The position numbers were made by a program, and so were the translations under genes. From positions 971-64,970 of the forward strand of contig CAVWCE010000026.1 of assembly GCA_963753275.1 (NCBI GenBank): a stretch of DNA of 64,000 nt, read 5' to 3'. The stretch is from an uncultured Alphaproteobacteria bacterium. GTDB taxonomy: Bacteria > Pseudomonadota > Alphaproteobacteria > Geminicoccales > Geminicoccaceae. Below, in pieces: positions 4,618-43,679 of this stretch. The notes below the pieces were generated by a model. It had not been told where the DNA came from and did no database searches. It was given only the letters and a program-made list of their open reading frames with translations. The first letter of the stretch is position 1. Each line of letters starts with the position of its first letter.

Positions 4618-5176
4618 AGCGCCGGCCTCCCGCGCGTCGTCGGCCGTCGCCGCGGCGCGCCTCGACGCCGCGCCAGCAGCGAGCGCGGAATGGATCGCGA
4701 GCGCGAGGCCCTGCAGCGCCACCAGGCCGGCGAAGACCAGGATCACGGTCTTGAGCAGGAACACCCCGGGGATGCCGAGGCTGCCCTCGGGCGAGCCCTC
4801 GCGCACCGCCCAGGCGGCGGCGACGTAGGGCCAGGCGACCCAGGCGATCAGCGCGCAGATCGGCAGCAGGAACACCACCACCCCGAACAGGTCGACCAGC
4901 GCCTTGGTCCGCGGCGAGGCGGCGCTGTAGAAGATGTCGCAGCGCACGTGGCCGTTGTGCAGCAGCGTGTAGCCGGCCGCGACCATGAACAGGCATGGCG
5001 TGCATGTAGACGATCGATTCCTGCATCTTGACCGAGCCGAGGCCGAACACGTAGCGCATCACGACGATCGACGAACTGCAGCAGCACGAGCAGCAGCGCG
5101 AGCCAGGCGACGCGTGCGGCCGAGCCCCTCGTTGAGGCGGTCGATCGCGCGCGCGAAGGCGCAGCAGCAGCGTCAC
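4614..5176 (-). pseudogene. dctQ: TRAP transporter small permease (DctQ type); frame broken
   Basis: ORFs 4430-5176 and 3844-4986 carry ..VVMRYVFGLGSVKMQESIVYMHA.. and ..AAGYTLLHNGHVRCDIFYSAASPRTKALVDLFGVVVFLLP.., both typical DctQ text. It lies directly upstream of dctM. Confidence 0.65.
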
Positions 5177-5279
5177 CGCGGCTCTCGGGCAGGGCCGGCG
5201 GCAGGTCAGGCCGGCCAGCGGAGCGGCGGGCGCCGCCCGCGCGCGGACGCCGCCCCGGAATCAGCCGGCAAGGCCGGCG

Positions 5280-6391
5280 TCAGCCGTACTGGAACGGCAG
5301 CGAGCGGGCGTTGTAGTAGCCCTGGTCGGCGATCGCCGCCCAGCCGACGCTCTTCGCCCGGAAGTCCATGTAGCTGTCGTAGATCTTCTGGGTCAGCGGA
5401 TCGGAGGCGCCGACCTCGGCCACGACCTCGCCCGAGACGCGGCCGATCTCCTTCAGCAGCGTCGTCGTTGAAGCGGCGCACGCTGGACGTTGTGCTGCTC
5501 GACCAGGACCTTGAGCGAGTCGGCGTTCTGGGCGTTGATCTCGGCGTACTCGCGCCACGCCTCGGCCTCGATCGCGGCCTGGATCAGCGCCTGCTCCTCG
5601 CTCGGTCAGGCCCTCCCAGACCTGGCGGTTGATCATCACCTCGCCGGTGGTGCCGGGCTCGTGCCAGCCGGGCCAGTAGTAGAACTGGGCGACCTTGTAG
5701 AAGCCGAAGGCGAGGTCGTGCCAGGGGCCGACCCATTCGGTGCCGTCGATCGTGCCCGACTGCAGCGCCGGGAAGATCTCGCCGCCCGGCAGGTTGACGA
5801 CCGCCGCGCCGAGCCGGCGCAGCACCTCGCCGCCGAGCCCCGGCATGCGGAACTTGAGGCCCTTGATAGTCGTCGAGCGTGTTGATCTCGCGGCGGAACC
5901 AGCCGCCCATCTGGGGGCCGGTGCTGGCGCGCAGGAAGGGCTTGATGTCGAACTGCGCGGCGAGCTCGTCCCACAGCGCCTGGCCGCCGCCATAGGCGAT
6001 CCAGGACGCGTGCTCCATCGGCAGGAGGCCGAACGGCACCGCGGTGAAGAAGTTGAACGCCCGGCGACTTGCCCTGCCAGTAGTAGGACGCCGAGTGGCT
6101 CATCTCGGCATTGCCGGCCGAGACCGCATCGAACGACTGGAACGGCGGCACCAGCTCGCCGGCGGCGAACACCTTGACCTCGATCTTGCCCTCGGACATC
6201 GCGGTGATGCGCTCGGCGAGGCGCTCGGCGCCGGTGCCGAGGCCCGGGAAGTTCTTGGGCCAGGTGGTGACCATCTTGAACTGCTTCATGCCCTGCGCGA
6301 TCGCCGGCGCCGGGAAGCTCGACGCGGCCGCGGCGGTCCCGACCAGCGCCCCGCCGGCGCCGACGGTCCTGACGAAATCACGACGCTTCAT
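5280..6391 (-). pseudogene. TRAP-type solute receptor with a Tat-like leader (COG4663-like); frame broken at least 4 times
   Basis: MKRRDFVRTVGAGGALVGTAAAA leader with an AGGAGAGG ribosome-binding site. Text continues over ORFs 5636-6457, 5584-6039 and 5280-5993 (KMVTTWPKNFPGLG, FGLLPMEHASWIAYGGGQALWDEL, IDGTEWVGPWHDLAFGFYKVAQFYYWPGWHEPG, DSYMDFRAKSVGW). Confidence 0.8.
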
Positions 6392-30502: not shown

Positions 30503-30742
30503 ACCTGGACGGTGCGCTGCGCGACCATGGCCGCCGACGCCTTTCCGGCCACCAGCAGTTATAGTTGCGACCAAGTCATCGCCGGCTGAAAGCCGAACGC
30601 CGATGGTGCGGTCACGGAAGCGGAGAACCGCGGTCCGGACTCTCCATCTCGCGGAAGCCACGAATGGCTAACTGCTGTCATTGACGGCACTTAATGGCGT
30701 GATTAGGTTGTTCTGCCGGAGCCTGGTTCCCGGAGGGTCGAG

Positions 30743-30985
30743 ATGGGCGTGCTGACGGTGCGGAAGGTCGACGATCAGCTGATCCGGGAGCTGAAGCTGC
30801 GGGCGGCTAAGCATGGCCGCTCGGCCGAAGCGGAACACCGCCTGATCCTAGAGCAGGCACTTCGACCGGACCGGCAGGCCCTGGTCAGAGAGCTGCGGCA
30901 GCACCGGCGCTCGCTCGAAGGACGCGACTTCGCTGACATGACCGAGATCATCCGCCGCTCGCGGGATTCGGGGTGGGAGGAATGA
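30743..30985 (+). CDS. Ribbon-helix-helix antitoxin (FitA/VapB-like)
   Basis: MGVLTVRKVDDQLIRELKLRAAKHGRSAEAEHRLILEQAL. Overlaps the downstream PIN gene. Local GC is lower than the flanks. Confidence 0.75.
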   Translation: MGVLTVRKVDDQLIRELKLRAAKHGRSAEAEHRLILEQALRPDRQALVRELRQHRRSLEGRDFADMTEIIRRSRDSGWEE

Positions 30986-31419
30986 ATGACCGCCTGGTAG
31001 TGGATGCGAGCGTCGCGACCAAGTGGCTGGTTCCGGAGGACGACAGCGAACGGGCAGAAATGCTCCTGACGAGCACGGCGCGGCTGCATGCTCCTGCTTT
31101 CCTTGCCATGGAAGTCGCGAACGCCCTGTGGCTGAAGATGCGGCACGGTGAGCTGGACGACGCGGAAGCGCGCGCAAGCCTGGAATATCTGCGGAAGATT
31201 CCATGGGCAGCATGGCAAGGCGAGGAACCGTTGCCGGAGACACTCAATCTCGCGAAGACCCTCGACCACGCCGTCTACGACTGCGCTTATCTCGCGCTGG
31301 CGATCCATCTCGATGCGATCTACGTGACCGCCGACCGGCGCTTCTGGCACAAGGTCCGGGCCAAGCCGGAACTCGCCGATCGCGTGCTGCGGCTCGAGGA
31401 TCTGGTGGCTCGGATCTGA
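30982..31419 (+). CDS. vapC: PIN-domain toxin (VapC family)
   Basis: MNDRLVVDASVATKWLVPE .. YDCAYLALAIHLDAIYVTADRRF. Confidence 0.8.
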   Translation: MNDRLVVDASVATKWLVPEDDSERAEMLLTSTARLHAPAFLAMEVANALWLKMRHGELDDAEARASLEYLRKIPWAAWQGEEPLPETLNLAKTLDHAVYDCAYLALAIHLDAIYVTADRRFWHKVRAKPELADRVLRLEDLVARI

Positions 31420-31432
31420 ACCGGGCGGCGCG

Positions 31433-32317
31433 TCAGCCCTCGCCAGCGCCGCCGGCGGGCTCGAGCTGGATCGTGGCGTGGTCGATGCCGTGGTCGCGCG
31501 CCAGCACCTCCTGGATCGCCTTCAGCACCCGGTCGTGGTCGGCGCCGGCGCGCAGCCGCGCGTGCATGGTGAGCAGCGGCCGCTCGCTGGTCAGCATCCA
31601 GGCATGGACGTGGTGGACGTCCTCAAGCTCGGGAATCGCCGCGGCCAGCGCCGCCCTAAGCTCGCCGACGTCGAGCCACTCGGGCGTGCCCTCGAGCAGG
31701 ATATGGCCCGATTTCTTGACCAGCACCCAGGCGCTCCGCAGGATCAGCAGCGCGACGAGGACCGAGAGCAGCGGGTCGATCGGCATCCAGCCGGTCGCGA
31801 CGATGACCAACGCGGCCACGATTGCCGCGACTGAGCCGAGCAGGTCGCCCAGCACGTGGAGCGCGGCGCCCTGGATGTTGAGGTTGGCCCGGTCGCCGCG
31901 GTGCAGGATCCAGAACGCCGCGAGGTTGACCAGCAGCCCGAGCACGGCGATCGCCAGCATCAGCCCGCCCAGCACCTCGACCGGCGCCAGCAGCCGGCGC
32001 GCCGCCTCGATGGCGATCCAGCCGACGATCGCGATCAGGGTCAGGCCGTTGACGAAGGCGGCGAGCACCTGGAAGCGGTGATAGCCGTAGGTGCGGCGCG
32101 CGTCGTGCGGCCGGCGGCCAATGCGGAACGCCATCCAGGCCAGCGCCAGCGATGCGCAGTCGGTCAGCATGTGGCCGGCATCGGCGAGCAGCGCAAGCGA
32201 GCCGGCGACGATGCCGCCCGCCACCTCCGCCAGCATGAAGCCGCCGGTCAGCAACATGGCGAGGAACACGCGGCGCTCGTTGTCGGCCGCGGCCTCCCCG
32301 TGCGCGTGATCGCGCAT
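31433..32317 (-). CDS. Cation diffusion facilitator family metal exporter (CzcD/ZitB-like)
   Basis: Intact 294 aa. SLALLADAGHMLTDCASL, YGYHRFQVLAAF, HVLGDLLGSVAAI. Confidence 0.9.
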   Translation of the reverse strand: MRDHAHGEAAADNERRVFLAMLLTGGFMLAEVAGGIVAGSLALLADAGHMLTDCASLALAWMAFRIGRRPHDARRTYGYHRFQVLAAFVNGLTLIAIVGWIAIEAARRLLAPVEVLGGLMLAIAVLGLLVNLAAFWILHRGDRANLNIQGAALHVLGDLLGSVAAIVAALVIVATGWMPIDPLLSVLVALLILRSAWVLVKKSGHILLEGTPEWLDVGELRAALAAAIPELEDVHHVHAWMLTSERPLLTMHARLRAGADHDRVLKAIQEVLARDHGIDHATIQLEPAGGAGEG

Positions 32318-32469
32318 GCGCAGGCTCAGGGCCGGCCTGCTGCGGCCGCAGCGCTCACCGGCTCAGGCGCGAAGACCAGGAATGGGAGCGCCATCATGCT
32401 GGCAGCCGGCGACACGCTCGGTGCCAGGTAACCCCCGCCGCGCGGCGCGGGAGGCCGCCCCTGATCGAG

Positions 32470-32676
32470 CTAGCGCGCCGCGCCGAGCGGCCGCTTGCGC
32501 GGCTTGATGCCGACCTCGGCGATGTCCTCGAGCTCAGCCAGGCGGCCCTGCTCGAGGCTCGCCGAGACGAAGCCCGGCGCCAGCACCTCGATGCGGCTGG
32601 CGCCGATCGCGCGCAGCCGCCCGACCACCTCGGCCTCGTCGTGCCCCGGCCGCGGCTCGGCCAGGACCGGGACCAC
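32470..32676 (-). CDS. Small ORF resembling the N-terminal pro-domain-like region of the adjacent S8 protease
   Basis: ..RIEVLAPGFVSASLEQGRLAELEDIAEVGIKPRKRPL parallels ..VEDLGGGFVSAQVAPRDVARLIADPAVRRVQSKKRSQP in the protease. GTG start. It may be a gene remnant. Confidence 0.35.
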   Translation of the reverse strand: MVPVLAEPRPGHDEAEVVGRLRAIGASRIEVLAPGFVSASLEQGRLAELEDIAEVGIKPRKRPLGAAR

Positions 32677-32805
32677 CTGACGGTCGCGCGCGTCCGAGCC
32701 GCCGCGCCGTCTGCTTCCTCAACAGCATGGCATCATCCTCGCAGCCGGCGCTCGTGCCGCCCTGGTTGCAGAACGCCCCGGGAGCGGACCGTTCCGGCGG
32801 CCGCA

Positions 32806-34583
32806 TCAGGCGACCGGGGCCAGCACCACGCCACGTCGAGCTTGCCGTAGCCGTAGCCCGGCGTCCAGGGCGCGCGGCCGGTGTGCGCATCGTGGCGCGC
32901 GCGCGCGGCGAGAATGTCGCGCGCCCGCGCCGTGGTCAAGGCCGGGTCGCGCTGCAGCATCAGCGCCAGCGCCCCGGCGACCACGGGTGCTGCCATGCTG
33001 GTGCCCTCGATGTGAGCAGGCGGTCGGCGACCCGGGCGCGCTCCGCCCAGCCCGCGAGCTCCGAACCGTCGGCGAGCGCCGCCGTGAGGTATTGCCCGGG
33101 CGCCGCGAGGTCGGGCTTCCAGCGGCCGTCGCGGGTCGGACCCCGGCTGCTGAACGGGCTGGCGCGCCCCGCCACCACCTGCCGGTCCTCCTGCGGGCCC
33201 TCGTCGCTCGCCCAGTCGCCCGGCTGACGTAGCTCGCGACCGCGAGGCAGCCGTCGCCGGTCGCCGGCAGGCCTACCGTGCGCGCGCTCTCGACCATCGG
33301 ATGGGCTGTGAACGCGGCAAAGCCGCTGTTGTTCATCCAGCCGTCGATACGGCCGATCTGCGCCCGGCGGCAGGTGAGGCGCAGCTGCCAGCCCGTGAGC
33401 AGGCGGTCGGCGATGAACGCGCCCTTGAAGCTCAGCGAGATCTGGACCTGGAGCGAGCGGCTCCAGGCATAGCGCCGCCGCGACAGCTCGAGGTCGAGGC
33501 TCGCCGACTGGTAGAAGTCGGTGTTGCCCGCGGTCGGCACCGGCACCGCCTGGCCGGACGGCGTGATGACCTCGATGTCGAACCGGTCGCGCTGGTCGTA
33601 CCACAAGGTCAGGACGGCGAACTGCCGCCCTCGCGTTGCCGCAGGACGTCGAAGCGGACGAGCTGGGACTCGCCGGCGACGAAGCGGTCGCCGATGTGGA
33701 TGCGGTCGCTGCGCTCGTTGCCGGCCGCGACCACGATCAGCTTGCCGGGGCCGACCAGCGTGCCGTGCAGCCGCTCCTCCTGGTCGGTGCCGTCGTGGGC
33801 GCCGAAGTGGTGCCCGAGGCTCATGTTGACCACGCAGGGTCGCGCCCCGGCCTTGCGGAAGATCCAGCTGACCGCCGCGTCGGTGTTGATGAAGTCGGTC
33901 TTGACCAGCAGAAAGCGCGCGCCGGGCGCCACCCCCTCGAAGGTCGCCACAGGCGCGAGCCGCCGGCGATGCTCGCGACATGGGTGCCGTGGCCGTTGTC
34001 GTCGCCCCCGGCCGGGCGGCGCGCGACCAGCCGTTCTCGAGCTGGGCCGTCGTGTACTCGCGGTCGCGGTTGGTCTGATCGAGCAGTCCCTCGACCCGGA
34101 GCGCGCCGTTCGCAGTCGCGGAACGCCGGGTGCGACAGATCGAAGCCGGTATCGACCACCCCGATCAAGCACGCCCGCGCCGTCCTCCGGAACGGTCCGC
34201 GTGCCGCTCGCGCGCAGGCCGATCTCCGGCAGCACGGCGGTCAGCGCGGCTGGCTGCGCTTCTTGCTCTGCACCCGGCGCACCGCCGGATCGGCGATCAG
34301 GCGCGCCACGTCGCGCGGCGCGACCTGCGCGGAGACGAAGCCGCCGCCGAGATCCTCGACCGCCTCGGCCGAGGCGGTCAGCAGGTTGCCGACGTGCTCC
34401 GGGTCGCTCGCCTCGATCAGGACCGCGGTGCGGGCCTCCTCGGGCGGCGCCTCGAGTCGCCGGGGTGGCGATCCCGGCGGCGCGCGCCGCGAGCGCCGGC
34501 CGCAGCCGCCGTTCGGCGCGGCCGACGAGCGAGGCGAGCGAGACCGATGCCTTCGGCGACAGCTTGAACGTCGACTTCTCCAT
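32806..34583 (-). pseudogene. Subtilisin-like S8 serine peptidase with no signal peptide; at least 7 frame breaks
   Basis: The catalytic triad contexts lie in different frames: IGVVDTGFDLSHPAF (Asp), DDNGHGTHVASIAGG (His), GTSMAAPVVAGALALM (Ser). Pieces are in ORFs 33609-34583, 34241-34600, 33821-34168, 32806-33981, 32960-33604 and 32733-32996. Confidence 0.8.
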
Positions 34584-34694
34584 CGCGCGGCGGTCCTCAT
34601 TCGCTCAGCAGTAGAGACCTACGCCATGGTACTTGCGCGATACGAGACAGGCAATCGATCGGCCAGGCAGGTCGACGGGCTCGGACTTGCGCCG

Positions 34695-35444
34695 CTACGG
34701 CCGGGCCAGGAGGCCGCCGTCGACGATCAGCTCGGTGCCGGTGATGTAGGCCGCCCGGTCCGAGAGCAGGAACAGGCAGGCCTCCGCCATGTCCTGCGGC
34801 GTGCCGACCCGGCCGAGCGGCACCGCGGAGGCGGTGCGGTGCTTCATCGCCGGCTCGGCCTGCCAGCGCGCCTGCATCGGGCTCTCGGTCGGCCCCGGCA
34901 GGACCACGTTGGAGCGGATCCCGTCGGCTGCGAACTGGATCGCGATCGACTTGGAGAGCGCCAGGATCCCGGCTTTCGCCACCTGATAGGCGTCCTGCGG
35001 CCGGTCGTCGCCGCGCAGGCACTGGATCGAGGAGACGTGCACAAACGCCCCGCCGCCGCTCGCCCTCATGTGGGGAATCGCATGGCGCGCGGTCAGCATG
35101 CAGCCGGTGAGGTTGATCGCGAGCACGCGATCCCAGACCGCGAGGTCGACCTCGGTCAGCGAGCGGTCCTGGCCGAACAGGAGGACGCCCGCCGCGTTGA
35201 CCAGGTAGTCGAGCCGCCCGTTGGCGGCGAAGGCGCGAGCGATCGCTTCGCCGACGAAGCGCTCGTCGCTGACGTCGCCCTGCTCGTAGAGCGCGTCCGC
35301 GAGCTCGACCGGGCGCTCCTTGAGGTCGATCCCGACGACCAGCGCACCCGCCTCCTGCAGGTCGAGCGCGACCTGCAGGCCCATGCCGCCGCCGGCGCCG
35401 GTCACCACCGCGGCCCTGCCGGCGAAGCCTTCCGCCCGGCGCAT
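34695..35444 (-). CDS. SDR-family oxidoreductase
   Basis: MRRAEGFAGRAAVVTGAGGGMGLQ (TGxxxGxG), YQVAKAG (YxxxK), NVVLPGP. This is the C-terminal part of ORF 34695-36809, 5 nt after the GS-like stop. Confidence 0.9.
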   Translation of the reverse strand: MRRAEGFAGRAAVVTGAGGGMGLQVALDLQEAGALVVGIDLKERPVELADALYEQGDVSDERFVGEAIARAFAANGRLDYLVNAAGVLLFGQDRSLTEVDLAVWDRVLAINLTGCMLTARHAIPHMRASGGGAFVHVSSIQCLRGDDRPQDAYQVAKAGILALSKSIAIQFAADGIRSNVVLPGPTESPMQARWQAEPAMKHRTASAVPLGRVGTPQDMAEACLFLLSDRAAYITGTELIVDGGLLARP

Positions 35445-35449
35445 CGCGC

Positions 35450-36809
35450 TCAGGCCCGCTCGAAGCCGCGGATCAGCTCGTGGTCGGTGATCCGGCGGTC
35501 GTACTCGAACTGCTCCCAGCGGGCGGCGTGCAGATAGTGCTCGACCACGGCGTCGCCGAACGCGGCGCGCATCGGCTCCGAGCGCTCGAGACAGTCGATC
35601 GCCTCGCGCAGCGTCTTCGGGATCTCCCGGATGTCCTTGCCCTTGTAGGCGTCGCCCGTGAAGGCGGGCTCGAGCTCGAGCTGCTCCTCGATGCCGTGCA
35701 GCCCGGCCGCGAGCAGCGCCGCGAAGGCGAGGTAGGGGTTGGCATCGGCGCCCGGGATCCGGCACTCGACCCGGAGCGAGGGCCCGGCGCCGACGACCCG
35801 GAAGCCGGCCGTGCGGTTGTCGCTGCTCCAGATCGCCTTGGTCGGCGCGAAGGAGCCGGCCTGGAAACGCTTGTAGGAGTTGATGTAGGGCGCGAGGAAC
35901 AGGGTGAGGTCGCGCGCCAGCGCGAGCTGCCCGGCCACGAACCGGGTGAACGTCGCCGAATGGCCGCCGGACCCGTCGGGGAACGCCGGCGCGCCATCGT
36001 CCGCATCGACCAGCGAGACGTGGACGTGGCAGCTGCTGCCGGCGAGGCCGAAGTCCCATTTCGCCATGAAGGTCACGGCCTTGCCCTGCAGGAAGGCGAT
36101 CTCCTTGACGCCGTTCTTGTAGATCGCGTGCCGGTCGGCCATCTCGAGCGCTTCGGCGTATTTGAGGTTGAGCTCGGCCTGACCCGGCCCCCACTCGCCC
36201 TTGGAGAACTCGACCGGGATGCCGGCGGCGTCCATGTCGTTCCTGATCTTGCGGATCAGGCCCTCCTCCTTGGTGGTCTGGAAGATGTGGTAGTCCTCGA
36301 TGTACCAGCCGGCGGTCTCGAGGCCCTTGTAGCTCTTCTTGCGCGCGACGCCGTAGGGCTCGTCGAAGACGTAGAACTCGAGCTCCGAGGCCATGTTGAC
36401 GGCGAAGCCCGCCGCGCGGGCGCGGGCGAGCTGGCGCTTGAGGATCGCGCGCGGGCTGTGCGGGACGTCCTCGCCATGGTGGTCGACCACGTCGCCCAGC
36501 ACCAGCGCCGTGCCCTCGAGCCAGGGGATCTTGCGCAGCGTCGCGAGGTCGGGCCGGATCGCGAAGTCGCCGTAGCCCTTGTCCCACGACGCCGCCGCGT
36601 AGCCCGGCACCGGCTCCATGTCCATGTCGAGCGCCAGCAGGTAGTCGCAGGCGTGCATCTCGTGCACCACCTGGTCGATGAAGTAGTGCCCGGTGACCCG
36701 CTTGCCGATCAGCCGCCCCTGCATGTCGGTGAAGCAGACCAGCACGGTATCGACCGCGCGCCGCGCGACCTCCTGCTTCAACTGCTCGAGATCCAGATTG
36801 CCGGCTCAT
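35450..36809 (-). CDS. Glutamine synthetase family protein (gamma-glutamyl-amine ligase, PuuA-like); one extra base at codon 3
   Basis: Intact body 35450-36781 (EFYVF, GEWGPGQAELNLKY, NSYKRF, DNRTAGFRV). The ATG at 36809 gives MSGNLDLEQLKQEV.. once one base near 36804 is removed. Confidence 0.85.
36696..36809. repeat. Left copy of a ~113-bp imperfect direct repeat (5' end of the GS-like gene)
   Basis: Aligns base for base with 38364-38476 (offset 1668). I count 5 substitutions and one extra base. Confidence 0.9.
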
Positions 36810-37258
36810 TGTTGCTACTCGCCGATTTAATGTCGAAATCGGAGTCCGGAGCGAAACGCCAGCGCGATCGATGCGAGGCCAGGCAAAGGCACCAACCGTG
36901 CCAAGCGCGATGGCGGCCGAGGTCGGCCTCCCACGTCTTCAGCTCCTCCTCAGTGTGAGCTCGGACCCGAGGATCTCGGACTTGCAGGCTGCGAAGGTTC
37001 TTGATCTCGAGCTTGGCCAGTTCGAGATGCAAGACGGGGATCATGAGGATAACCGAACCGATAAACCCCAACCAGTTCTTGACAGCCTTGATCGGGTCGA
37101 GAGCACCGAGGCCGACCACGGCAACGACGAGGGCGACTACGGCCGAAGCCGAGCTTGATCCACAGGCGGCGGATGAGGTCTGGCACGGCAGCGGGCTGCC
37201 GCCTACGCGCCGGGACGGCTGCGGCGAAACCAGCCGTACCGCTAAGCAGGGTCGTCAT
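36778..37258 (-). CDS. Possible small membrane protein inside the cassette; frame ambiguous
   Basis: ORF 36950-37258 (MTTLLSGTAGFAAAV..) and ORF 36778-37119 (..AVVALVVAVVGLGALDPIKAVKNWLGFIGSVILMIPVL..) may be one gene with a frame break. Two hydrophobic helices, weak ribosome-binding site. Confidence 0.3.
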
Positions 37259-37402
37259 CGCTCGTTCGAAAAGGCGGAGGTAGCGGCTCGTGCAGTGCTG
37301 TACGACGACCTCCGATCTCCCTCCTTCAAGGGAAGGGTCGTCTCCAGTGCCAAGGCGAGCCGTTGCAATACATTCGCAGTAACACGCTCGGTCAAAGTTT
37401 CC

Positions 37403-37822
37403 TCATCCAAGGCGATCGCTGGTGCGGGCCCCGCGTGTCGGGCGGGTCGCCGACTCGCCGATCGGCGCCAACTCTCGTGCGGACACGATCTGACCGTCCT
37501 TGTCGTAGACGATCACATCGAGGAATCCGCCGCAGCCCTCGACGAAGGACTTGATGTCGCCTACTTGGACCCGGTCCGAAAAGCCGTCGTCCAGATGTTT
37601 GAGATCATCGCTCGGATCGCCGAGCTTGCTGGCTAGCTCTTCATCCGACAGCCCGCTGGCCTCCCGCAGACGTCGCATCGCCCTGCCCAGCTCATGTACC
37701 CATCGGACCAATTCGCGCTCGCGGGTCTCGGCGCGTGCTTGACGGTCCTTTTCGTCTCGCGCGTCGCGGTGCCTCTTCTGATAAGCCCGGAACTTGTCAA
37801 GCGGGGGCCGTGCTTCGCTCAT
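37403..37822 (-). CDS. XRE-type helix-turn-helix protein (candidate antitoxin/regulator) with a basic N-terminal extension
   Basis: AMRRLREASGLSDEELASKLG..DDLKHLDDGFSDRVQVGDIKSFVEGCGGFLDVIVYD fits the XRE HTH pattern. Its ATG overlaps the upstream stop (ATGA). A GGAG motif lies 9 nt upstream. Confidence 0.6.
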   Translation of the reverse strand: MSEARPPLDKFRAYQKRHRDARDEKDRQARAETRERELVRWVHELGRAMRRLREASGLSDEELASKLGDPSDDLKHLDDGFSDRVQVGDIKSFVEGCGGFLDVIVYDKDGQIVSARELAPIGESATRPTRGARTSDRLG

Positions 37823-38229
37823 CAGTCGATCTCCGTGAGGTTCATGGTAGCAATACCATGAATTTGCCTCGCCCGTGCGATGGCCAGGGCCCTTTCGCCA
37901 CGCCTGGAACGAAGGGCCGTCGAGTACGCCATGATAGGAGTGATGATCCCCTTACCGTCGAGAGTGAACCAGACCGGAACCTTGCCGGAACCGATCAGCC
38001 GCCACTCCCACCGGTACAGATAGTGGCTCATGCCAAGTCGGCCCTCCTGGCTAGCATTAGGAAAAATTCTCTGATCGTCCTCCATGTCGAGCAAGCGGAA
38101 CTCCAGAAAGCTTCTCGGCCGGCCGCGTTCTAACCACGGGATTCTGTCCAGATCGCTCTCGAACTGCGAGGGCCAACCGGCCAGCTTGAGGCGTCCGCTG
38201 GGCGCGCTTCCTGGTTGCTGTTCAGCCAT
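37822..38229 (-). CDS. Hypothetical 135-aa protein, no family recognised (candidate toxin/effector partner)
   Basis: MAEQQPGSAPSGRLKLAGWPSQFESDLDRIPWLE..YLYRWEWRLIGSGKVPVWFTLDGKGIITPIMAYS.. Translationally coupled to the HTH gene. Confidence 0.5.
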   Translation of the reverse strand: MAEQQPGSAPSGRLKLAGWPSQFESDLDRIPWLERGRPRSFLEFRLLDMEDDQRIFPNASQEGRLGMSHYLYRWEWRLIGSGKVPVWFTLDGKGIITPIMAYSTALRSRRGERALAIARARQIHGIATMNLTEID

Positions 38230-38363
38230 CGAAACGCCGCAGCGTCGCGAAGGACGCCCGATATTCCGGCCAGGCCGTTCGGCCGCGGCGGCGTTCCGAC
38301 TCCTTGTGCAGATCCTCGGGCGCGAAATCCTCCTCAGGCAAGCAGACATGGATCCGGGCCAGA

Positions 38364-38476
38364 ACCCGTTTGCCGATCAGCCGCCCCTGCATGTCGGTGA
38401 AGCAGACCAGCACGGTGTCGACCGCGCGCCGCGCGACCTCCTGCTTCAGCTGCTCGAGATCCAGGTTGCCGCCCAT
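38364..38476 (-). pseudogene. Right copy of the direct repeat: an orphan 5' end (first ~38 codons) of the GS-like gene
   Basis: MGGNLDLEQLKQEVARRAVDTVLVCFTDMQGRLIGKRV, followed by unrelated sequence (ORF 38222-38494). Confidence 0.85.
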
Positions 38477-38667
38477 GGCGCCGCCGTCCCGCATTGGCTC
38501 GATGTCGAATTCGCGTGCGCCAGCCTAGAGGAGTTGGCGCCGGGCGAGAAGACGCGCGCGCACGAGGCCGCAGTCTGCGCGCGCGCCGGGACCCCGGCTG
38601 TGCTATTATCGCGATGCTGCAACCAAAGAAATTCAATCTGCGGTCCCCATGCGACAGGAGGCGGGAT

Positions 38668-39673
38668 ATGCCGACCCCATTCAGCGTGATGACCTGGAAC
38701 GTCGAGAACCTGTTCCGCCCGGCGGCGCGACGCCGAGCGCCGAATCGAGGAGCGCTACGGACGCAAGCTCGCGCTGCTGGGCGCCGTCATCGCCGCGATC
38801 GACCCGGACGTCGTGGCCCTGCAGGAGGTCGGCGGCGACGCGCCGCTCTCGGACCTGCAGCAGGCGCTCGAGGGCCGCTATCCGCATCGGCGGGCATCGA
38901 CGTCGCCGGACGGGCGCGGCATCGGCGTCGCGTTCCTCTCCAAGCTCGCGATCGCGGACCAGGACGAGCTGGTCGACTTCCCGCCCGGCCCGGCGCTCGA
39001 CATTCACGACCTCGACGCCGACGGCAGGGCGGTCCCGGTCACGCGCATGGGGCGCGGCGCGCTCCGGATCCGGGTGACCAAGGACGGGATCACGGTCGAC
39101 GTCCTGACCGCTCACCTGAAGTCCAAGCTCCTGAGCTACCGGAGGCAGGGCGGCCGGACGAGCTTCGTGCCGCGCGACGAGGGCGAGCGCGCGCAGGTCG
39201 CCGGGATCGCCCTGATGCGGCGCACCGCCGAGGCGATCACGCTCCGGCAGCACGCCAATCAGCTGCTGGAGGGCAACCCGACCACGCCCTTGGTCGTGCT
39301 GGGCGACCTGAACGACGTGCCCGAGGCGGCCACCAGCCAGATCCTGACCGGCCCGCCCGGCAGCGAGCCCCGGACCCCCGGCTTCGATCGCGCCGACCTC
39401 GGCGACGACGCCCGTCTGTTCAACCTCGCTCCGCTGATCGATCCCGCGCAGCGCTTCTCGCGCGTGCACAGGGGCGTCGGCGAGCTGCTCGACCAGATCC
39501 TGGCCTCGGAGGAGCTGTTTCCGCGCCAGGCCAACGGCCGGCGCAGCCTGCCCGAGGTCCGCAGCCACACCGAGTTCGCCGGCGGCCTCGCCTCGGTTAC
39601 CGAGGACCCGAACCTGCGCCGCGACGACGTCGCCCCGGACCACGCGCCGGTCAGCGCCGCCTTCGAACTCTGA
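38668..39673 (+). pseudogene. Endonuclease/exonuclease/phosphatase (EEP) family protein; one net +1 frame break near 38715-38735
   Basis: MPTPFSVMTWNVENLFRP, then in the +1 frame ..AERRIEERYGRKLALLGAVIAAIDPDVVALQEVGG .. VVLGDLNDVPE .. DHAPVSAAFEL (ORF 38813-39673). Confidence 0.8.
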
Positions 39674-39764
39674 GGGCGGGCCGCGCGCCGCAGCGCGCCG
39701 GCCTCGCTCACGAGCGCAAGGCAATCCCTGCCTGGCCCGCGACCCCGAACCGTGGCGAGCGGCG

Positions 39765-40841
39765 TCAGGCCCCCTTGTAGCGATAGGGCGGACCGGCGGC
39801 CTCCATCGTCGCGAGGTAGTCCTTGAGGATCTGCACGACCTTGGCGCTCCTCGGGCTCTGCTCGGCGATCTCGTCCCAGAACTCGAGCGCGGCGCGTTCG
39901 ACCACCGCCCACTCCTCTTCCGGGATCGTGGTCAGCTCGAGCTTGCCGCCCTTGGTGCGGTACTGCGCCTCGCCCCACCAGTACCAGTGCTGGCGGTAGT
40001 AGTGCGAGCTGTCCATGGACAGCCGGAACAGCGTCTTGAGATGCTCGGGCAGCGCGTTCCACTTCTCGGTGTTGGCGAAGTAGGAGCCCGCCCAGGCGCC
40101 GGAGATCGGGTTGGTGAGATAGTAGCTGGTCACGTCGGCCCAGCCGACCGTGTAGTCCTCGGTGATGCCGGACCAGCAGACGCCATCGAGCTCGCCGGTC
40201 TGCACGGCCACCTCGACGTCCTCGTAGGGCAGCGCCACCGGCACCACGCCGAAGCGCTGCATGAACCGGCCGCCGGTCGGGAAGGTGTAGACCCGGAGCC
40301 CGTTGAGGTCCTCGAGCTTGCGGAGCGGCTTGGTGGTCGCGAAGTTGCAGGGGTCCCAGGCGCCGGTGCTCAGCCAGGTGACGCCTTCCACCTCGGCGTA
40401 GGCCTCCTCCCAGATCTCCTTCAGCCCGTACCAGTTCCACAGCACCGGCACGTCCAGGCTGTAGCGTGAGGCGAAGGGGAAGTAGGCGGCGAACACCGCG
40501 ACGTCGACCGGCGCCGCCATCGAGTCGTCGTCGCTCTGCGCCGCGTCGATGGTGCCGGTCTGGACCGCCCGGAACAGCTCGCCCTGGGGCACGAGCTGGT
40601 CGGCGGTGTAGAGCTCGATCACCATCTCGCCGTTGGCCGCGGTGTTGAACGCGTCGATCGAGGGCTTGATGACGTGCTCGGCCAGAGCGGCGCCGGCATA
40701 GGTCTGCAGCCGCCACCGGATCGGGCTTTGCGCCCTCGCGATGTACGGCGCGCCGATCGCCGTGGCCGCCGCGGCCGAAGCCGTGGTCGCTCCTGCTGTC
40801 TTCAGAAAGTCGCGCTTGTTGATCCTGCCGGGCCGGTTCAT
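39765..40841 (-). CDS. TRAP transporter solute receptor (DctP family) with a Tat leader
   Basis: Intact 358 aa. MNRPGRINKRDFLKTAGATTASAAA, with family text throughout. Confidence 0.9.
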   Translation of the reverse strand: MNRPGRINKRDFLKTAGATTASAAAATAIGAPYIARAQSPIRWRLQTYAGAALAEHVIKPSIDAFNTAANGEMVIELYTADQLVPQGELFRAVQTGTIDAAQSDDDSMAAPVDVAVFAAYFPFASRYSLDVPVLWNWYGLKEIWEEAYAEVEGVTWLSTGAWDPCNFATTKPLRKLEDLNGLRVYTFPTGGRFMQRFGVVPVALPYEDVEVAVQTGELDGVCWSGITEDYTVGWADVTSYYLTNPISGAWAGSYFANTEKWNALPEHLKTLFRLSMDSSHYYRQHWYWWGEAQYRTKGGKLELTTIPEEEWAVVERAALEFWDEIAEQSPRSAKVVQILKDYLATMEAAGPPYRYKGA

Positions 40842-40950
40842 CCTGGTTGGCTCCTTTCGTGGTTGGTTGGCGTCCGCCCACGTCGTCGGGCTGGACCTGC
40901 TGCTCGAAGTTCCTTGATGGCCGCGTTGCTGGCTCCTCCCGCTGACGTCG

Positions 40951-42271
40951 TCACCCGTAGAACCGGCTCGGCAGCCAGAGCGCGATCTGCGGAAACGCCG
41001 TGACCAGCGCGAGACCGAGGATCATCACCGCCACGAAGGGGATGATCGAGAGATAGATGTCCTGCAGCGTGATCTCCGGCGGCGCCATCGCCCGCATCAG
41101 GAACAGGTTGTAGCCGAAGGGCGGCGTCATGTAGGCGATCTGGCAGGTGATCGTGTAGAGCACGCCGTACCAGACCGGATCGAAACCTAGCGAGATCACC
41201 AGAGGGACGTAGAGCGGGGCGACGATGACCAGCATCGCGGTGTCGTCCAGGAACATGCCCATGAGATGAAAGGACAGCTGCATCATGATGATCACTTCCC
41301 ACGGCCCCAGGCCCCACTGCTCGAGGAACAGGAGCCTGATCGCCTGCACCGCGCCGAGGCCGTCGAAGACCGCGCCGAAGCAGAGCGCGGCCAGGATGAT
41401 CCACATGAACATGCAGCTGATGCTCAGCGTCTTCCGGATCGTGTCCTCCAGCACCTGCCAGTTCAGCCGGCCCTTGAGGAGCGCGGCGATGGTCGCCGCC
41501 GCCGCGCCCACGGCCGAGCTTTCGACCAGGCTCGTCACCCCCATCATGAACAGCCCGGTCATGAGGAAGAAGATGAGGAGGGGAACGACGCCGGCGCCGA
41601 GCAGCCGAACCTTCTCGCTCCAGCCGACCTGCCGCTCCTCGGCGGGCAAGGCCGGCCCCAGATGCGGCTGGAAGTAGCATCGGATCGCGATGTAGGCGAC
41701 GAACAGGCCGGCCAGCAGCAGGCCCGGGAAGACGCCGGCGAGCCACAGCTGGCCGATCGGCTGGCGGGCGATCATGCCATAGAGGACCAGGACGACGCTG
41801 GGCGGGATCAGGATGCCGAGCGTAGCTGCCCGCCTGGACGACGCCGGTCACCATGATCTTGTCGTAGCCGCGCCGCAGCAGCTCCGGCAGCGCGATGCTG
41901 GCGCCGATCGCCATGCCCGCGACGCTCAGCCCGTTCATCGCCGAGATCACGACCATCAGGCCGATCGTGCCGATCGCGAGACCGCCCCGCACCGGACCCG
42001 CCCAGACGTGGAACATCCGGTAGAGGTCGTCCGCGATGCCGGACTCGGAGAGCATGTAGCCCATGTAGATGAACAAGGGCAGGGTCAGCAGCGGATACCA
42101 GTTCAGCAGGGCGATGCTGGCGTTGAACGGCATCTCCGAGGCGCCCTCGCCCCACAGCAGCAGGGCGAAGCCGGTGGCGACGCAGCCGATCGCGCCGAAC
42201 ACCCGCTGCCCGGTGAGCAGCAGGACCATCATCGACGAGAACATCAGCAGGGCGATGAGCTCGTAGCTCAT
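40951..42271 (-). pseudogene. dctM: TRAP transporter large permease (DctM); one frame break near 41800
   Basis: MSYELIALLMFSSMMVLLLTGQRVFGAIG .. VTGVVQAGS / LGILIPPSVVLVLYGMIARQPIG .. ALWLPSRFYG. The N-terminal part is the internal portion of ORF 40838-43174 and the C-terminal part is ORF 40951-41775. The start overlaps the dctQ stop (ATGA). Confidence 0.85.
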
Positions 42272-42780
42272 GCGAGCGGCTCCCCGCGCGCCTTCGCCAG
42301 GTCCTTGAAGAACACCGCGACGACCTGCAACAGCATCAGCGTGATGCCGATCGTCATGACGATCTTGATCGGCGCCAGAGGCGGCGCCCACGACGAATAG
42401 TTCTTCTGCCCGTACTCCAGCGCATAGAGCGTGCTGGAAACGCCGCCGACCAAAAGAAACACGAGATAGAAGATCAGGAAGGCAGCGGTCAGCACGTCGG
42501 CCAGCGCCTGTGTCCGAGGCGACCAGCGGCTGTACAGCAGGTCCATCCGGACGTGCGAATCCAGCTGCATGGAGTAGCCGCCGCCAAGCAGATAGTACGC
42601 GGTCAACAGGAACTGCGCCATCTCGACGGTCCAGATGAACGACACGTTGAAGAACGTGCGCGAGGTCGACGACAACAGCAGCACGCCCATCATGGCGAAG
42701 ATCGAGTACATCGCGAACCGGCCGATCACCCGGTTGATCGCCTCGACGTAGCGGACGTATGCCTTGATGGCGGAGGGCAT
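42268..42780 (-). CDS. dctQ: TRAP transporter small permease (DctQ)
   Basis: MPSAIKAYVRYVEAINRVIGRFAMYSIFAMMGVLLL.. Four hydrophobic helices; internal ATG of ORF 42268-42942. Confidence 0.85.
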   Translation of the reverse strand: MPSAIKAYVRYVEAINRVIGRFAMYSIFAMMGVLLLSSTSRTFFNVSFIWTVEMAQFLLTAYYLLGGGYSMQLDSHVRMDLLYSRWSPRTQALADVLTAAFLIFYLVFLLVGGVSSTLYALEYGQKNYSSWAPPLAPIKIVMTIGITLMLLQVVAVFFKDLAKARGEPLA

Positions 42781-43118
42781 CCCTTCTTCTCGTTGCTCGT
42801 TCTTCTGCTGTAGCCGATCGTCGCCTGCGCGCGCCGACCCGTCCCTCCCCTGAAGCGCGGACCGGCGCGCGACGCGCAGGAGCCGGGGCCGACCGGCCGG
42901 AAGCCAGGTTACAGCAATTCCTCGAAATGGAAATACCAGCATCGGCCGAGCTGTGCGATTCCGGTCCCGAGCGGCGATCGCGCACCGCAGCGGCGCGCGG
43001 CTTTAAGGGTTTGGTATTCCGCTCGCCGCTACCCTGTGGCAGGATCGGGCCGAGGTCGTAGCGCGACCGACAGAGATCGCGCGCGGCCTGCGCCTCAAGC
43101 CTGCGGGGAGTTCCGGGG

Positions 43119-43679
43119 ATGCCTGTGCGTGGCGCTGAACAGCCATCCTGCGATCGCCGGCGCATGCTCGCCATGACGCTCGGCGCGGGCTGCGGGCTGA
43201 TGCTGGCCGCGGCGCGGCCCGCGGCGGCCCGGGCCGCCGCCCGCCAGCTCGACTTCTACAGCATCCACACCGGTGAGACGCTCAGCGCGACCTACTGGGA
43301 GAACGGCCGCTATCTCGCCGACGGCCTGCGCGCGATCGACTACGTGCTGCGCGACTTCCGCACCGACGAGGTGCGCTCGATCGATCCCGAGCTGCTCGAC
43401 CTGCTGCATGGCCTGCGGCTGGTCATGGACTACGATCGCCCGATCAGCGTGATCTCCGGCTATCGCTGCCCGGCGACCAACGCGATGCTGGCCGCGCGCA
43501 GCAAACAAGTCGCCAAGAACAGCTATCACGTGCGCGGCATGGCGATCGACATCCGCCTGCCGGGACGGCAGCTGGCGTCGGTGCGCGACAACGCCAAGAC
43601 GCTGGCTCTGGGCGGAGTCGGCTACTATCCGGAATCCGAGTTCGTCCACGTCGACACCGGGCCGGTGCGCGCCTGGTAG
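43119..43679 (+). CDS. DUF882 / peptidase M15A (YcbK-like) protein with a Tat leader
   Basis: CDRRRMLAMTLGAG leader. ISVISGYRCPATNAML..SYHVRGMAIDIRL..GGVGYYPESEFVHVD. Confidence 0.85.
   Translation: MPVRGAEQPSCDRRRMLAMTLGAGCGLMLAAARPAAARAAARQLDFYSIHTGETLSATYWENGRYLADGLRAIDYVLRDFRTDEVRSIDPELLDLLHGLRLVMDYDRPISVISGYRCPATNAMLAARSKQVAKNSYHVRGMAIDIRLPGRQLASVRDNAKTLALGGVGYYPESEFVHVDTGPVRAW

Follow-up and report, generated by a model that had tools for sequence, protein, structure and literature searches.

Why should a metabolic gene carry its own first 38 codons twice, on either side of a segment of low G+C content? The question is raised by a glutamine synthetase-like (GS-like) gene in a 64,000-nucleotide stretch of an uncultured Geminicoccaceae bacterium (assembly GCA_963753275.1, contig CAVWCE010000026.1, positions 971 to 64,970), which we refer to as the window. 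A first-pass annotation, made from the letters alone, had noticed the repeat and proposed that a circular element had integrated there, by site-specific or Campbell-type recombination, bringing its own copy of the gene's 5′ end. We compared the window with related loci and contigs, which are numbered with an L (L001, L081, and so on), and conclude that the window carries, as read from these comparisons, a hybrid locus in which two alternative architectures of the same chromosomal site are combined. At a probability of roughly 60%, we favor an origin by recombination between the two architectures through one homologous and one illegitimate crossover, that is, homology-facilitated illegitimate recombination (HFIR).

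The duplicated gene start

The two copies of the repeat, which we call R (right; 38364–38476, minus strand) and L (left; 36696–36809, minus strand), both correspond to codons 1–38 of the minus-strand GS-like gene (35450–36809), as had been recognized. Their gapless cores, 36696–36803 and 38364–38471, match at 96% with a spacing of 1668. When the alignment is extended to the ATG codons at 36809 and 38476, five substitutions separate the copies and L has one base more than R, in agreement with the earlier count. The similarity is far above chance, and no other repeat family within 34000–41000 is comparable. The protein encoded by the complete gene belongs to the glutamine synthetase family, with a Gln-synt_C domain (PF00120; 325 bits, residues 109–436). 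Against the NCBIfam models for GlnA (type I), type III GS, and gamma-glutamylputrescine synthetase it scored 228, 228, and 197 bits, where the cut-offs are 429, 470, and 650; as all of these equivalog cut-offs were missed, we name it GS-like.

The statement that the left copy runs into a full 443-aa body stands as far as the body is concerned, since codons 1–38 of L are continuous with it, but not as regards the start. An extra C after the ATG, at ~36804, puts ATG 36809 out of frame with the GS body, and the in-frame open reading frame (ORF) starts at TTG 36781, which is also the start of the deposited gene call (identical, 443 aa). In L082, and in relatives that are 97–99% identical, MSGNL... 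is read in frame. We also observed that a CTG-to-TTG change specific to the window, at 36778–36781, creates this TTG start together with the TGA at which a frameshifted membrane-protein ORF of the insert stops, the stop and start overlapping as TTGA. The arrangement could be a compensation for the broken ATG, or a coincidence.

R, by comparison, is an orphan stub. It still sits on the leader that precedes a single GS gene at empty sites, and it differs from the 5′ end of the GS gene of one such relative, L167, by only 4 nt. The stub carries a 9-bp deletion in L082 and frameshifts in L083, and is therefore not maintained as coding sequence. We considered the idea that the stub ORF serves as a leader peptide translationally coupled to the first gene of the insert (ORF135), and rejected it, as L082 has a stop 35 nt upstream and L083 carries frameshifts in its stub.

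Two further points concern how the copies diverged. The internal substitutions between R and L are all synonymous, which had been taken as the mark of two functional copies. This is weaker evidence than was claimed: in the common ancestor of the window and L082, R and L differed only at codon 2 (GGC/AGC), a non-synonymous difference, and few private changes have been added since. The all-synonymous pattern is accounted for by recent conversion from the selected copy and by small numbers, and does not require two functional copies. An 11/12 match between 36830–36841 and 38502–38513, which had been offered as a hint that the homology once extended into the 5′ untranslated region, is absent in L082, L081, and L083, and we do not retain that suggestion. 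The match coincides with a weak promoter-like hexamer, which we regard as unproven.

The repeats had been judged not to be a target-site duplication, and we agree. They are 113 bp long with six differences, rather than a short identical duplication of 2–14 bp, and the insert has neither terminal inverted repeats at its ends nor a transposase. In a tblastn survey of ~165 related loci, which was the set used for both the duplication and the tandem checks, only the window, L082, and L083 scored for a duplicated GS 5′ end; a shorter duplication in L001 was missed by tblastn, and was revealed by DNA comparison only.

Between the copies, the DNA is indeed poorer in G+C, as had been noted (62.2% compared with 69–73% in the flanking genes), and it carries three minus-strand genes, ORF135, a helix-turn-helix (HTH) gene, and ORF115, whose G+C content at third codon positions (GC3) is ~0.70, compared with 0.94–0.97 in the flanking genes. 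The reported lack of an integrase or transposase was borne out as well. A domain search of the three cassette proteins, and of the other ORFs of 36778–38494, found no domain typical of a recombinase, integrase, or transposase, and no recombinase gene or remnant was present in six cassette-bearing contigs, L081–L084 among them. A search for further copies of the insert, and for linked integrases, had been proposed; the cassette had no match in plasmid, phage, and viral-contig collections, and was seen only at this GS locus in this clade.

Source and empty forms of the locus

The upstream end of the insert is what identifies its origin. Positions 38273–38363 (minus strand) are what remains, ~27 codons, of the 3′ end of a gene for an APC-family amino-acid permease, joined in frame to codon 38 of the GS stub. 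The remnant shares 81–82% identity with the 3′ ends of the permease genes in L081 and L128, and its SPEEEFAL tail is kept in more than 20 distant permease homologues beside GS genes, from which we conclude that it is genuine. The joint of R codons 37–38 to the permease tail lies at a 4-nt microhomology, GGTC: the GS gene reads ...AAG CGG GTC|ACC, the L128-type permease ...GCG GTC|TAC, and the window ...AAA CGG GTT CTG GCC CGG.

An intact version of this arrangement is found on L081, a 254-kb contig, where the order is permease, ORF135, HTH gene, ORF115, GS, and a short-chain dehydrogenase (SDR) gene, with no second GS 5′ end. L081 is 82% identical to window 38231–34699, and the 3′ end of its permease gene matches window 38347–38280. 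The two are also collinear on both sides, L081 186–8081 with window 50535–43215, and L081 13753–15414 with window 32296–30653. The sole difference in the locus is that the permease body of L081 is replaced in the window by genes for a tripartite ATP-independent periplasmic (TRAP) transporter (DctQM and DctP), an endonuclease/exonuclease/phosphatase-like (EEP) gene, the leader, and GS codons 1–38. Based on this collinearity, we regard the two as one locus in two forms, and not as an islet in foreign ground. We refer to the form of L081 (amino-acid permease, three-gene cassette, GS, SDR) as type A, and to the form of the close relatives (TRAP transporter, with or without EEP, leader, GS, SDR) as type B. 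The permease–GS and DctP–GS adjacencies are both common in other genomes (DctP–GS occurs in many), and never occur together.

The site without an insert, for which a comparison of related genomes had been recommended, exists in three relatives with a single GS 5′ end. The claim that the insert is flanked by two copies of the gene start that have diverged from each other also holds. In L167 (ENA ERZ1758388) the order is EEP, the same leader, one GS, SDR, and a cation-efflux gene, with no insert. L167 is 92.9% identical to window 39475–38364 (L167 1–1110) and 95.3% identical to window 36803–34603, and the first 113 nt of its GS gene align to both copies in the window. L168 (94% nucleotide identity) has the same leader running directly into a full GS, and L085 (90%) has DctP, an unrelated ORF, a leader, and a single GS. 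Presence and absence of the insert thus both occur within one species-level group, the window and L082 being filled and L167 and L168 empty.

Taken with the type-A locus, the insert reads as a segment cut from a homologous locus of the chromosome; its ends are arbitrary, and it has no att site. The proposal that a discrete element had integrated site-specifically does not fit an upstream end that is a permease remnant joined at GGTC, an insert collinear with L081, and an absence of copies from the plasmid, phage, and viral collections.

Origin of the hybrid and its later history

Types A and B share GS and everything downstream, and nothing immediately upstream. We propose that type-A DNA recombined with a type-B locus, with the homologous crossover in or beyond GS; given that there is no upstream homology, the other end would have been joined illegitimately, at GGTC, between the donor permease tail and the resident GS codons 37–38. 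With this joint inside the gene, resident codons 1–38 would have survived behind their original leader as the dead stub R, whilst the incoming 5′ end, L, would have come to head the working gene, so that GS stayed whole. Thereafter, RecA-type exchange between the 113-bp direct repeats would keep the copies alike by gene conversion, and the same exchange may delete the cassette precisely and regenerate type B. Some features expected of an HFIR product are at hand, namely a joint at a short microhomology on one side (GGTC), a foreign segment that adjoins its homologous anchor, a donor arrangement (L081), and empty recipients (L167, L168, and L085).

The copies do evolve in concert, by gene conversion. 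L083 is distant from the window (72% aa identity for ORF135; dS ~1.2), and yet shares its gene order, from DctP through the GS stub, the permease remnant, and the cassette to GS. In L083 the stub carries indels and has decayed toward both ends, whereas a central run of 44 nt is identical to its own L copy, including states specific to L083, and the mismatches between its R and L cluster at the ends (permutation p=1e-4). The L copies of the window and L083 differ at 17 sites; at 10 of these R agrees with the L of its own genome, and at 4 with the R of the other. Since conversion keeps the copies alike, and the architecture is common to the distant L083, the likeness of R and L is not a sign of a recent event. 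Nor is the window's duplication one lone accident, as L001 carries an independent one, in which the GS leader and codons 1–8 are repeated at 5147–5262 and 5880–5973 around a unique 650-bp insert; the copies are ~74% alike, and the corresponding empty site is L128 1510–1589. There is a third short leader fragment at L001 5627–5641.

Several observations weigh against the HFIR explanation, or leave parts of it free to be read otherwise. A linear HFIR event and the Campbell insertion of a circle give an identical product, and sequence cannot separate them. Polarity is likewise not readable from synteny, so it may be the TRAP block that came in, and the cassette side that was there already; we take a type-B recipient as the simpler choice for the window's group because empty relatives exist there. 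A type-A locus is not known in that species-level group. HFIR from a diverged donor would often leave a tract of raised divergence, and yet the GS body after codon 38, compared with L167, has no raised divergence (2–5 mismatches per 100 nt, with no close donor available for comparison), and when the GS body was searched for a donor tract, neither L167 nor L168 gave a signal. L083 has a decayed junction, and calling it the same junction depends on an imperfect alignment. Finally, the low GC3 of the cassette after a dS of ~1 could hint at its repeated re-introduction.

The same evidence bears on the other ways in which the locus could have arisen. The Campbell route supposes that a 1.67-kb fragment (permease tail, cassette, and GS codons 1–38) was circularized at GGTC and then entered the 113-bp GS 5′ region of a type-B locus by a single crossover, with later loop-out and re-insertion possible. 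It yields exactly the observed structure, uses the empty site that exists, and predicts the lack of raised divergence after codon 38, as the crossover would be confined to the repeat; the direct repeats make loop-out plausible, and the GS 5′ end has been duplicated independently in L001. Nevertheless, we consider this route unlikely, while keeping it in view, as it needs two rare steps, an illegitimate circularization in a type-A cell and then the transfer to a type-B cell of a circle that does not replicate and has a mere 113 bp of homology there. No circle was seen, nor any copy in the plasmid, phage, and viral collections, and the ends are as arbitrary, with a gene remnant at one of them, as those expected of a chance fragment. 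A history that starts from tandem paralogues, TRAP-DctP-leader-GS_A followed by permease-cassette-GS_B, would require one illegitimate deletion only, from codon 38 of GS_A to the permease tail, after which the stub was converted toward GS_B. Both adjacencies are common elsewhere, and gene conversion between the copies is demonstrated. However, none of the ~165 related loci combines the two transporter types or carries GS genes in tandem on one strand, and the leader joined to a single complete GS in L167 and L168 would need a further precise deletion between R and L in each, which makes this history highly unlikely in our judgment.

Two other explanations fare worse. The integrative element SXT/R391 inserts into the 5′ end of prfC and supplies a new 5′ end, and a decayed island of that kind, with the 113-bp repeat as attL and attR at the GS 5′ end and its integrase since lost, would also leave direct repeats around a low-G+C segment. 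Against it stand the six cassette-bearing contigs without a recombinase gene or remnant, the end that is a permease remnant collinear with a chromosomal locus, the cassette of L081, which adjoins GS without any repeat, and the absence of the cassette family from the plasmids, phages, and viral contigs searched; we give it a very small chance. As for an assembly artefact, in which two strain variants of the GS 5′ end had been collapsed or chimerically joined, the clustering of frameshifts in accessory genes does suggest uneven consensus quality. This was one of the outcomes that would have undone the first-pass annotation, but the same copies and junction are found in independently assembled contigs from other samples, the metagenome contig L082 (JGI 3300045996) and L083 (ENA). 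L082 is 95.8% identical to window 39519–36682, with both copies present, and the chance of an artefact, which would call for one error common to all three assemblies, is negligible.

A more speculative thought is that the permease tail, a HigBA-like cassette, and GS codons 1–38 together form a recombinase-free islet that targets its site by homology. We think this distinctly unlikely. If it were true, the islet would loop out via the flanking GS 5′ repeats and insert afresh into this GS gene in any relative's genome, through either one homologous crossover or one-sided-homology capture, its toxin–antitoxin-like pair would select against its loss, the GS 5′ end would be a recurrent landing pad, with L001 as a second, independent 5′ duplication, and the persistently low cassette GC3 would reflect life as a circulating element. 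On the HFIR explanation that we prefer, the locus documents from nature, with unusual completeness, the capture of accessory genes with only one homologous flank. All states are present in public data: a donor-type locus, an empty recipient-type locus, a hybrid with a microhomology joint, and an older, decayed copy with gene conversion. A second lesson is that low-G+C DNA bracketed by a long, imperfect direct repeat is, on its own, no evidence of a mobile element, and that remnants of genes at the boundary, with synteny to relatives, can distinguish a scar from a mobile element.

The cassette, its neighbors, and comparison with known systems

The first cassette gene, ORF135 (37822–38229, minus strand), encodes 135 aa and is intact. 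The start of the second (37242–37822, minus strand) overlaps its stop at 37822; this gene encodes an XRE/HTH_31 protein, 192 aa in relatives, and is frameshifted in the window at ~37423 and ~37298. The third, ORF115 (36827–37186, minus strand), encodes a small membrane protein of 115 aa in relatives, is frameshifted in the window at ~37140 and ~36882, and is conserved in L081, L082, L083, and L084. Between lineages, dN/dS across the cassette genes is 0.13–0.33 (ORF135, 0.13–0.23; gene 3, 0.15–0.32) at dS of 0.5–1.2, from which we conclude that all three are real genes. At least five frameshifts fall in the 1.5-kb cassette and the GS start, compared with one in ~11.5 kb of 14 syntenic core genes. 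This clustering rules out uniform sequencing error as their source, and they are either real decay or the result of a locally poor consensus. As no terminator-like site was found in the cassette, read-through from the old leader across the cassette into GS is possible.

The module is very rare. A word-indexed search of 5.8 billion proteins returned four relatives of ORF135 and five of the HTH protein, and a HMMER profile scan for ORF135 over 1.84 billion representatives returned five, so that the cassette amounts to ~ten instances among billions of proteins. The distant members L165 and L166 both keep a 135-aa-like gene with an HTH gene overlapping its end; a homologue of the membrane-protein gene is present in L166 too, whereas the contig of L165 stops right after the HTH gene, and there is no GS gene on either of these short contigs. 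All contigs of the cassette clade that reach beyond gene 3 have GS, or a gene in the GS position, ~20–25 bp downstream. In every lineage the cassette has a GC3 close to 0.70 (L081 10001–11397, L082 1280–2681, and L083 566–1950), where the host value is ~0.95, with no amelioration at dS of 0.5–1.2.

Its function may be that of a toxin–antitoxin pair. The HTH protein scored 26.5 bits against HTH_31, just below the cut-off of 27 (PF13560 is recorded for the proteins P0005 and P0007), and its profile gave a weak match to the HigA2 antitoxin 7ewc (E=0.024). For ORF135, a first AlphaFold2 model from four sequences was unusable (predicted local distance difference test score, pLDDT, of 42), whereas a model from six sequences reached a pLDDT of 79.8 with the topology b-a-a-b-b-b-b-a and a fold that may be weakly HigB/RelE-like. 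The best Foldseek match of this model was HigB2 in the HigBA2 structure (5jaa_D; E=0.11, template-modeling (TM) scores 0.38/0.47), which is not significant; against 6af4 the TM scores were 0.47/0.53. The ORF135 sequence had no match in Pfam, PADLOC, or the PDB, the last searched by profile. PADLOC gave no match for the membrane protein either, and only weak HTH-type matches for the HTH protein; in PHROGs, nothing better than E=0.09 was found for ORF135 or the membrane protein, with weak generic HTH matches for the HTH protein; and Rfam had no match on the leaders and cassette contigs. These are two weak, independent hints that the cassette pair may be HigBA-like, in which case it would oppose its own loss.

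Immediately upstream of the R stub, the leader/promoter region (38477–38669, minus strand) separates it from the divergent EEP gene (38670–39673, plus strand). This region also precedes the single GS at the empty sites, as seen in L167 and L168, and the N-terminal extension of P0018 (L168) is the translated leader directly upstream of a full-length GS. The EEP gene is frameshifted at 38729 in the window and intact in L082; at the empty site L167, the ORF in the same place leaves the contig end. Beyond it lies the gene for the DctP-like TRAP substrate-binding protein (39765–40841, minus strand), a marker of the TRAP-type locus, and the DctQM frame next to it (~40951–43174) looks split near 41775. 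On the other side, the SDR gene (34695–35444, minus strand) is the conserved partner downstream of GS. An exact-sequence look-up of the DctP and SDR proteins of the window returned no record.

The surroundings vary in other ways. Several relatives have a conserved leader of ~85 nt (CTTTGATCCCGGCA...GGCATGGCAGAAAGGCGGTTTCACGAAC...GGACAAGGCGCCATG) upstream of GS, with no match in Rfam (L001 5890–5973, L002 5890–5973, L128 ~1500–1580, and L085 ~1036–1110); the window, L167, and L168 carry a different one. L086 has an extra 1.1-kb insertion upstream of the GS leader (813–1909) compared with L089 and L018, and the region upstream of this GS gene is variable in nearly every relative examined. Between the SDR and cation-efflux genes, the window has a ~2.3-kb subtilase-like (S8) gene (32288–34603) with DTG and HGTH motifs and several frameshifts; neither L167 nor L081 has this segment there. 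In the slot downstream of the cation-efflux gene (window ~30650–31420), the window and L081 have PIN and FitA-like genes, whereas the corresponding slot in the close relative L167 (4394–4950) holds a different toxin–antitoxin pair, PemK and MazE-like.

Three known systems invite comparison. With type II, toxin-first HigBA systems the cassette shares a small-protein gene followed by an overlapping XRE-HTH gene, low G+C content, and a patchy distribution, together with the likenesses of the HTH profile to HigA2 and of the ORF135 fold to HigB2 given above, neither of which is significant. It differs in that its proteins have no Pfam or PADLOC toxin matches, in that the HTH protein has a conserved C-terminal extension of ~100 aa, in its conserved third gene for a small membrane protein, and in that the cassette in this clade always lies beside one GS gene. 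Possibly the module represents a novel variant of the HigBA kind, one that has a membrane partner. With SXT/R391 the locus shares a gene 5′ end that is duplicated or replaced, a gene that is kept functional, and an insert of atypical composition. However, the insert here has no integrase or defined att core, its boundary is a remnant of a neighboring gene, and it is collinear with a chromosomal locus of a relative.

The closest likeness is to the scars ascribed to HFIR. This mechanism is summarized, and proposed for arrays of orphan immunity genes at type VI secretion system (T6SS) loci, in PMC5361080, where earlier proposals of HFIR for orphaned 3′ regions at Rhs loci are cited; comparable arrays of orphan fragments are described there, and in references therein, for Rhs, CDI (contact-dependent growth inhibition), and T6SS effector–immunity loci. 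As in those scars, one conserved gene serves here as the homologous anchor, the non-homologous end is joined at a short microhomology, a displaced piece of the resident gene is left as an orphan beside the new module, and events recur at the same locus (the window and, independently, L001). The differences are that the orphan here is the 5′ stub of a metabolic gene, and there a 3′ toxin tip; that the joint here lies inside the anchor gene and so gives rise to a 113-bp direct duplication, later homogenized by gene conversion; and that the event here is read from sequence comparison. The locus represents a known kind of recombination scar, with unusually complete documentation, and carries a rare module.

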